Origin: a virus
Taxonomy: Duplodnaviria; Heunggongvirae; Uroviricota; Caudoviricetes
Length of the DNA stretch: 23,911 nt
Direction: 5' to 3' (one strand)
Virus record (IMG/VR): IMGVR_UViG_2526164594_000022
Shown here: positions 784 through 1,167 of the stretch, piece after piece
How positions within the stretch are numbered: the stretch's first letter is position 1
How the letters are laid out: the number at the start of each line of letters is the position of its first letter
Made by a program: the position numbers and the translations under genes
Notes under the pieces: generated by a model
What the model was told of the DNA's origin: nothing
Databases searched by the model: none
What the model saw: the letters and a program-made list of their open reading frames with translations, nothing else

Positions 784-1167
784 TTAGTCTCCAGGATTTC
801 CGGGGCGGTTCATTATGGCTGTTTTTCGAGTTTTTCTTAACTCTTCATGCAGCTCCGTTCTCAGAATATATGATTTTTCGAGTTTGAAATTCTTGCGACC
901 AGGCGTCTTATTGCCAGGCTCAGGAAGTGGAAGGCGTGTTTGAATGTCGAGTGGTGGACAGTCATAGAAGTAAATTCTATAAAGCTCAAGCGGTTCCCTA
1001 CGTTCTTGTGATTGACGTTTTCCATTAAGATGGGAAAGAACCATTGACCATATTACTTTCATTATGCATTGCGCAGTCAGTTCATGCTCGGCGAAGTGTT
1101 TACGATGCGTAGCATGAACACGCTGCATGAAAAAACCCGCATCAATTAAAATTGCTGCTTTCTTCAT
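784..1167 (-). pseudogene. Hypothetical gene in the rex position downstream of cI, 3' end interrupted by the IS; N-terminus MKKAAILIDAGFF is NYN/PIN-like
   Basis: ORF starts ~127 bp downstream of cI on the same strand, where lambda has rexA, but shows no resemblance to RexA. Its last ~9 codons (..NRPGNPGD*) are encoded by the IS terminal repeat, so the native C-terminus is missing. Confidence 0.5.

Follow-up and report, generated by a model that had tools for sequence, protein, structure and literature searches.

A truncated NYN-domain gene in the rexAB slot of an O157:H7 prophage, and the conserved leader RNA of its intact relatives

The ORF that follows cI in the window (the whole stretch of DNA analysed here, 23,911 nt) is a pseudogene of the ordinary IS-associated kind, within a decayed prophage of O157:H7. 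It is the remnant of a gene for a NYN-domain protein. The intact gene fills the place of rexA and rexB in lambda-immunity phages, including Stx2a-converting phages, as a single-gene cassette with a structured leader RNA that appears to be coupled to it. We propose that this cassette may be an RNA-gated RNase module. For the explanation as a whole, from the NYN pseudogene through the cassette and its coupled leader to the RNA-gated RNase module, we estimate a probability of about 0.55.

The features of the window on which the argument draws are as follows.

1-812, minus strand: IS629/IS1203 element (IS3 family), cut by the window start (from the sequence, the ORF list and RefSeq)
432-758, minus strand: orfA of the IS (ORF list)
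784-1167, minus strand: truncated NYN-domain gene, a 127-codon pseudogene with the product MKKAAILIDAGFFMQRVHATHRKHF... (ORF list)
784-813, minus strand: codons 119-127 (MNRPGNPGD) and stop of the truncated gene, IS-derived
813-815: TTA adjacent to the element; its far flank in EC4115 likewise ends in TTA
814-816, minus strand: codon 118 of the truncated gene, which holds the sole base differing from phage ev099
817-1167, minus strand: native codons 1-117 of the truncated gene, identical to residues 1-117 of the ev099 protein
1177-1242, minus strand: conserved structured leader RNA of 66 nt, ending 9 nt before the ATG at 1167
1237-1231 pairing with 1191-1185, minus strand: P1 helix of the leader, enclosing two 5-bp helices
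1248-1276, minus strand: sigma-70 promoter-like site TTGACG-17-TAGATT, a consensus match only (equivalent to L001 5464-5436)
1291: right boundary of the cassette that replaces rexA-rexB, where lambda homology resumes
1295-2008, minus strand: lambda-type cI, 237 aa, with 4 residues that differ from lambda cI

The truncation is evident from comparison with phages. The ORF starts beyond a gap of exactly 127 bp (1168-1294) from cI and on the same strand, much as the preliminary description had it, and the last nine codons and the stop do derive from the IS, whose terminal inverted repeat (...CCGGGGCGGTTCA) ends at 812. The native DNA at 813-1167 has 1 difference from ev099 in 355 nt, at position 816; this sole mismatch is only 4 nt from the IS end. 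Over 813-1300, identity is 99.8% with phages ev099, E212, 2B8 and EC.P3 and with 48 Stx2a-converting phages, in all of which the ORF extends to 285 codons (in ev099, L001 4498-5355, 285 aa). These are the uninterrupted homologues that the preliminary description proposed to look for, and they bear out its view that the gene is truncated: the window ORF is the 5ʹ 41% of a 285-codon gene. A natural stop at this position, the alternative named at that stage, can be set aside. The stop at 784 is not natural, since, of the 120 homologues listed, most are 250-330 aa long and a few are shorter fragments, and the window ORF spans positions 1-109 of the 246-position profile phrog_5783 (7.9e-43).

How the 3ʹ part was lost is more involved than first described. 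The element at the cut does belong to the IS3 family: the terminal inverted repeat TGAACCGCCCC... at 781-812 is a hallmark of that family, and in EC4115, at the identical locus, RefSeq has an “IS3-like element IS1203 family transposase” that includes a programmed frameshift. The assumption of a simple insertion did not hold. At the same locus in O157:H7 EC4115, the IS is joined on its other side to oL/pL/N phage DNA, at about position 4433 of the ev099 locus. The right IS flank starts at position 5001 of that locus, and hence ~565 bp are absent, including codons 119-285 and the tIMM terminator. As DNA from the pL/oL region lies beyond the element, the 3ʹ part of the NYN gene has been deleted and not displaced beyond the IS. 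The TTA on both IS flanks looks like a 3-bp target duplication. Insertion followed by an adjacent deletion, deletion followed by insertion, and recombination between two IS copies are all possibilities compatible with the junction.

The locus has more than one form among sequenced strains. The window-type IS junction occurs in 54 complete genomes, and a deletion junction without any IS (AATTGG/TGTTTTTCGAG) in 108; a second IS-less scar (AATTGG/TTTTCGAG) is also present, and at least some genomes of the O157:H7 lineage carry a further allele in which the IS is inverted and has different flanks. The IS junction itself is variable within O157:H7 (812-816; loci L003, L022, L023 and L024). Among the matches listed, the junction stretch 700-1300 is 100% identical in 30 of 30 genomes, the named ones being O157:H7.

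The preliminary description likened the N-terminal sequence pattern to that of NYN/PIN nucleases. A profile search confirmed the likeness for the full-length homologue, which passes Pfam NYN (PF01936) with 36.8 bits against a cut-off of 24.2; the 127-aa fragment alone had no match in Pfam or PADLOC scans. Existing annotation labels the intact gene “NYN domain-containing protein”, and the truncated ORF “hypothetical” or “PIN domain-containing”. A confident AlphaFold2 model of the intact protein, built on 57 homologues (pLDDT 88.6, pTM 0.80), predicts a PIN-like, three-layer fold with a parallel sheet, as judged by fold comparison. A sequence search of the PDB gave chance matches only. On this model, the intact protein is a NYN (PIN-like) nuclease-fold protein with insertions of its own, and a basic C-terminal tail is present in this NYN clade.

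Residues invariant across 35-57 homologues include D9, D69, R119, Q160, K161, D164, D170, G188, D189, D191, K197, H222 and D224. The window copy retains D9 and D69 and is without D164, D170, D189, D191 and D224; in all, the invariant residues lost are R119, G121, Q160, K161, D164, D170, G188, D189, D191, K197, H222 and D224. The GDSDF motif is absent from the fragment, whose product stops before the third core strand of the structure model. Most of the invariant, presumed catalytic residues sit in the lost codons 119-285. Because these codons are gone, the O157:H7 copy is a pseudogene: its sequence indicates that it would be unable to form a NYN active site, and that the gene is dead, a remnant of a NYN family member. 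We consider the pseudogene call and the NYN identification, taken jointly, to be nearly certain.

The surrounding DNA is a prophage remnant at the thrW tRNA of O157:H7. To the right of cI lie cro, cII and a frameshifted, lambda-type O gene (2754-3362 and 3164-3676, within 2754-3984). Of P, fragments joined to tail-fibre genes are left, and int is truncated; the prophage is heavily decayed, yet cI, cro and cII are intact. The tail-fibre segment at 4312-6190 adjoins pinE (6211-6801) and is inverted relative to O157:H7 EC4115, with 99.8% identity; its sequence fits a Pin-type invertible segment in the other orientation. Between the phage remnant and a P4-like element, at 6859-7683 and 8456-9199, are genes for a LEM-3-like GIY-YIG nuclease and an AraC-family regulator (RefSeq, EC4115). 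The P4-like satellite occupies 10111-21247 and includes genes for an integrase (10111-11343), an ogr/delta-like protein (15032-15304), psu (15310-15861), a sid-like protein (15931-16611) and a primase-helicase (18857-21247). Its int-psu interval (~11347-13856) carries proteins that RefSeq calls “ABC-three component system”, together with an AAA ATPase, at what we take to be the known P4 defence hotspot position.

In the intact phages, the NYN gene is part of a clean exchange with lambda rexAB. Homology between ev099 and lambda ends at the rexB stop codon, by a conserved terminator hairpin, and restarts 4 nt after the cI stop; lambda 35827-37222 (rexB, rexA and their leader) is replaced by 988 bp with one protein gene. 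The intact cassette (~990 bp) consists, in order, of the promoter-like site, the 66-nt hairpin with its U-run, and the ORF, and in ev099 a tIMM-like terminator follows within 8 nt of the NYN stop codon. The placement of the ORF in the rexA slot therefore stands, with the cassette filling the whole rexA-rexB slot between the cI stop and tIMM, as does the observation that its product does not resemble RexA, to which BLASTP found no similarity (E = 9.2). A rexB-like partner, which the preliminary description suggested looking for, is absent: the annotation of ev099 shows a single ORF between cI and N, and that candidate was rejected for want of any ORF between the NYN gene and tIMM. What the gene has as its partner is a structured, conserved leader RNA, which comes with a promoter-like site of its own. 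RexAB and BstA both lie in the interval between cI and N, a known hotspot for lysogen-expressed abortive-infection genes (PMC8585504). Among 5426 complete E. coli genomes, 74 have the intact NYN cassette; in these, and in 48 deposited Stx2a phages, the rexAB slot is filled by this single cassette. The terminator-like shape of the leader argues against simple co-transcription with cI, and probably limits how far the gene can be expressed from pRM through cI, the route that analogy with rexA would suggest.

The leader in the window folds as a three-part hairpin, AGCCCAG-CC-CCGUU-C-GCAGA-[CAAUUGUUAAUA]-UCUGC-AU-AACGG-CU-CUGGGCU, with a 12-nt loop (CAAUUGUUAAUA) at the apex and an A and U7 following P1 (1184-1177). 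The 66-nt sequence has a minimum free energy of -25 kcal/mol (z = -6.0), and 0 of 200 shuffles were as stable. Covariance model (CM) R2, for which the window is a seed sequence, scores 79.8 bits at 1174-1240 on the sense strand versus 26 bits antisense. It finds no second copy of the leader in the window, and lambda has no copy; Tandem Repeats Finder detected no tandem repeats at 1100-1400, and by CM there is a single copy per locus. The -10 hexamer of the promoter-like site ends ~11 nt before the hairpin. Both this site and the leader are unaltered in all three O157:H7 allele types. Rfam 15 has no family that matches the leader, giving only a chance Thr_leader match at E = 6, and nothing in Rfam matched at the leader position in 18 further loci. 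The leader RNA is apparently undescribed before.

Beyond E. coli, a hairpin of 50-75 nt with a U-run that ends 2-60 nt before the start codon was found at 71 of 83 homologue loci. This hairpin plan is present upstream of homologues in every sampled context and in 80 further genomes, from a scan that took one genome per species. The subtype met most often combines an 8-bp outer helix with an internal loop of 5ʹ-CAGUA(A/C) opposite 5ʹ-CGA(N)C, a variable inner hairpin and the U-run. Its internal loop may resemble the loop E/sarcin-ricin motif. Three alignments were evaluated.

A3: common subtype, hand-drawn structure; 31 sequences from at least 8 phyla and 4 phages; 78% of cells paired, 16 of 16 pairs with compensatory changes
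A4: CM alignment; 67 sequences; 83.5% of cells paired, 16 of 16 pairs with compensatory changes
A5: the window's subtype; 16 sequences (Enterobacterales, Pseudomonas, Acinetobacter, Halomonas, Pasteurella); 95.6% of cells paired, 13 of 17 pairs with compensatory changes

Cells with double changes number 84 in A3, versus 28.8 ± 4.8 in shuffles (reached in 0 of 500), and 181 in A4, versus 55 in shuffles; the sequences are related, and the shuffle controls therefore overstate significance, such that these figures are counts and not probabilities. Slid controls are fairer: they were clearly lower for A3, and only 28-45% paired for A5. RNAalifold on a MAFFT alignment of subtype A had given only 7 pairs, with register shifts, and was replaced by the hand-drawn structure and CM re-alignment. 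Covariation in this structured RNA, which Rfam lacks, extends over Proteobacteria, Bacteroidota, Acidobacteriota, Verrucomicrobia, Elusimicrobia, Spirochaetes and the phages of Firmicutes.

A CM built from A3 (R1) detects the element in at least 20 loci outside its seed, always on the strand of the gene and directly 5ʹ of the ORF. On the window's variant, R1 scores 14.2 bits (E = 0.53), and R2 was built as a separate model for that subtype, in which the loop nucleotides are conserved. We infer that the two RNA subtypes are one family from their shared position and architecture, not from alignment. RNA subtypes follow protein clades. A promoter-like site (at least 9 of 12 matches) occurs in 36 of 70 homologous loci versus 3 of 71 control windows inside the gene, and these sites lie at a nearly fixed distance from the helix. 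In our judgement, the leader is very probably a real element that is functionally coupled to the NYN gene. Four related loci from metagenome-assembled Proteobacteria (L058, L065, L081 and L088, at ~1400-1500) are without the hairpin and U-run; in at least three, the NYN gene is preceded instead by a GC-rich hairpin (CCGGCGCG...CGCGCCGG) that has no U-run and may be a variant of the leader.

The family is large and mobile. A search of 5.8 billion proteins returned 7035 relatives, which, among the matches listed, are annotated at most as “NYN domain-containing protein”. In E. coli phages and Proteus phage Brookers, the gene comes immediately after a LexA-like repressor; in Streptococcus phage Javan84, it lies between repressor and integrase. 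In Burkholderia phiE202, P. syringae, Halomonas and Shewanella, it adjoins the integrase at one end of a prophage, and in Edwardsiella its place is between the gene for the Q antiterminator and those for lysis. On plasmids of Acinetobacter and P. aeruginosa, its neighbours are HigBA, YoeB-YefM and similar pairs. In the contexts sampled, it is always a single protein gene with no conserved partner gene. The NYN family is cargo of mobile elements, and this spread, circumstantial as it is, is typical of conflict or addiction cargo. Toxin-antitoxin (TA) pairs (BrnT/BrnA, YoeB/YefM, HigB/HigA-like) recur a few kb from NYN cassettes on phages and plasmids, at the following positions.

L006 2277-2781: TA pair near an NYN cassette
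L016 11161-11677: TA pair near an NYN cassette
L026 9519-10074: TA pair near an NYN cassette
L029 6958-7543: TA pair near an NYN cassette

A different setting is seen in Proteus (L009-L012, 7001-7795), where an ABC transporter operon and glmS-glmU-atp are ~1.7 kb apart and the gap contains the NYN gene alone, with its leader hairpin; for 7 kb around there are no mobile-element genes. An index of the collection places the Proteus protein in 140 blocks.

What might the intact cassette do? We propose that it would encode an RNA-gated, metal-dependent endoribonuclease. A strong promoter would yield mostly an RNA of ~65 nt that ends at its own terminator, and occasional read-through would give the nuclease: with a promoter firing a few nucleotides before the terminator, mostly short RNA and little nuclease would be expected, and since there is no room for another promoter, every NYN mRNA would carry the hairpin. 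The RNA might either neutralise the nuclease, as in type III TA systems, or be its autoregulatory target. If the RNA is labile, its loss upon infection or upon loss of the element would free the RNase, leading to abortive infection or addiction, and the module's part in the competition between mobile elements would be one of defence or addiction. A defence role for the intact cassette is plausible; we put a TA-like or defence mechanism somewhat below even odds, and the location of the Proteus NYN gene in a chromosomal site by glmS counts against it. The fuller proposal is more tentative still, namely that the NYN gene and its leader are an unrecognised protein-RNA TA or abortive-infection module found across phyla, similar in its working to type III systems but built from an NYN RNase and one terminator-hairpin RNA, that lambda-immunity phages, many Stx2a phages among them, carry it in place of RexAB, and that O157:H7, having lost the nuclease, keeps an orphan RNA. 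Our literature searches returned nothing that links NYN proteins to prophage defence, type III TA systems or RNA motifs, and nothing on CP-933H sRNAs; nor did they turn up a description of the NYN gene as an occupant of the rexAB slot, of its pairing with a leader RNA, or of any function for it. Should the RNA gate the nuclease, this would be a new protein-RNA conflict module, and the phage immunity region that has been studied best would gain an RNase-based alternative to RexAB.

The leader could instead be a cis-acting attenuator or autoregulatory 5ʹ UTR and nothing else: the NYN protein would bind or cleave its own leader, the RNA would have no antitoxin role, and the nuclease would serve the element in another way, for example by RNA turnover that stabilises lysogeny or plasmid carriage. 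A hairpin that ends 2-60 nt before the start codon, and is hence carried by every NYN mRNA, fits this reading, as do the single copy without repeats and the lack of a conserved partner gene. However, with a strong consensus promoter just before a terminator, most of the output would be short RNA, a wasteful arrangement if control were purely in cis; the conservation of loop and internal-loop sequences across phyla suggests a specific ligand; and the NYN gene lies repeatedly beside TA modules and in prophage accessory-gene slots. On these grounds we regard control purely in cis as unlikely, if still a serious contender. It is improbable that the hairpin and U-run are an ordinary terminator or insulator that shields the cassette from transcription such as that from pRM through cI, with no link to the nuclease. 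The shape is canonical, and in lambdoid phages the hairpin comes directly after cI, but many loci have an upstream neighbour on the opposite strand, or one that is hundreds of base pairs distant, leaving nothing to terminate. Nor would a plain terminator account for a CAGUA(A/C)...CGA(N)C motif and loop nucleotides that are kept between phyla while the stems covary, for RNA subtypes that track protein clades, or for a promoter-like site at a fixed distance.

Two further readings concern the palindrome as DNA and the truncated product. BstA, another gene downstream of cI, has a DNA-based element at its start (PMC8585504), and the palindrome might likewise act as DNA, either as a self-immunity site like aba of bstA or as a recombination site. 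The U-run and the G-U pairs are on the sense strand, the U-run on that strand only, and the CM scores of 79.8 bits sense versus 26 antisense also speak for RNA, making a DNA-level role very improbable. That the 127-aa O157:H7 product is still functional, as a neo-functionalised N-terminal fragment, we find hardly credible. The ORF does stay open in many O157:H7 genomes, where the three allele types yield ORFs of 127-129 aa, but each type has a different junk tail, the product ends before the third core strand and is without 12 invariant residues including the GDSDF motif, and the rest of the prophage is decayed (O frameshifted, P and int truncated).

How does the cassette compare with known systems? 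As a protein, it is closest in kind to NYN domain nucleases such as the LabA-like VPA0982 (PDB 2qip) and the NYN domain of eukaryotic MARF1 (PDB 5yaa). Unlike these domains of ~150-160 aa, the phage protein has ~285 aa: its second and third strands are followed by insertions, and at the C-terminus it is extended by 75 residues (H222-x-D224, PxWW, basic tail). Its family also travels on mobile elements, coupled with a leader RNA. PADLOC-DB 2.0 gave no full-length match to a defence model, only partial matches over the ~45-residue NYN core (for the E. coli protein, HEC-09 2e-4 and NYN 1.4e-3; across 35 family members, 5.3e-6 at best). HEC-09, a NYN protein embedded in Hma systems, was the sole NYN candidate in a defence screen and gave no protection in the published test. 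It shares the NYN core (E = 2e-4 over ~45 residues) but combines an HTH-like N-terminus with a C-terminal NYN domain, in another genomic setting. Membership of HEC-09 was rejected, as only the catalytic core is shared.

Lambda RexA-RexB occupies the same slot with the same flanks, from the cI stop to the tIMM terminator. In contrast, the NYN cassette has no sequence similarity to it, has one protein gene without a membrane partner, and has its own promoter-like site and a terminator-shaped leader after cI. Type III TA systems are laid out as promoter, RNA, Rho-independent terminator and RNase gene (PMC5086642). ToxIN, CptIN and TenpIN resemble the NYN cassette in this order, which is predicted here to be promoter, RNA, terminator and RNase-type gene, and in their carriage by plasmids and phages. 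The NYN leader differs in being a single hairpin that is itself the putative terminator, whereas ToxI consists of tandem repeats, and the protein has the NYN fold and not that of ToxN/AbiQ. BstA (prophage BTP1 and relatives) lies in the slot downstream of cI, and a DNA-based anti-BstA element (aba) spans the start of its gene (PMC8585504). Both are single-gene cargo directly after the repressor with a regulatory or self-immunity element at the gene start, and BstA is found in diverse Gram-negative prophages. The two proteins are unrelated, and whereas aba acts as DNA, the NYN element has the signature of an RNA structure.
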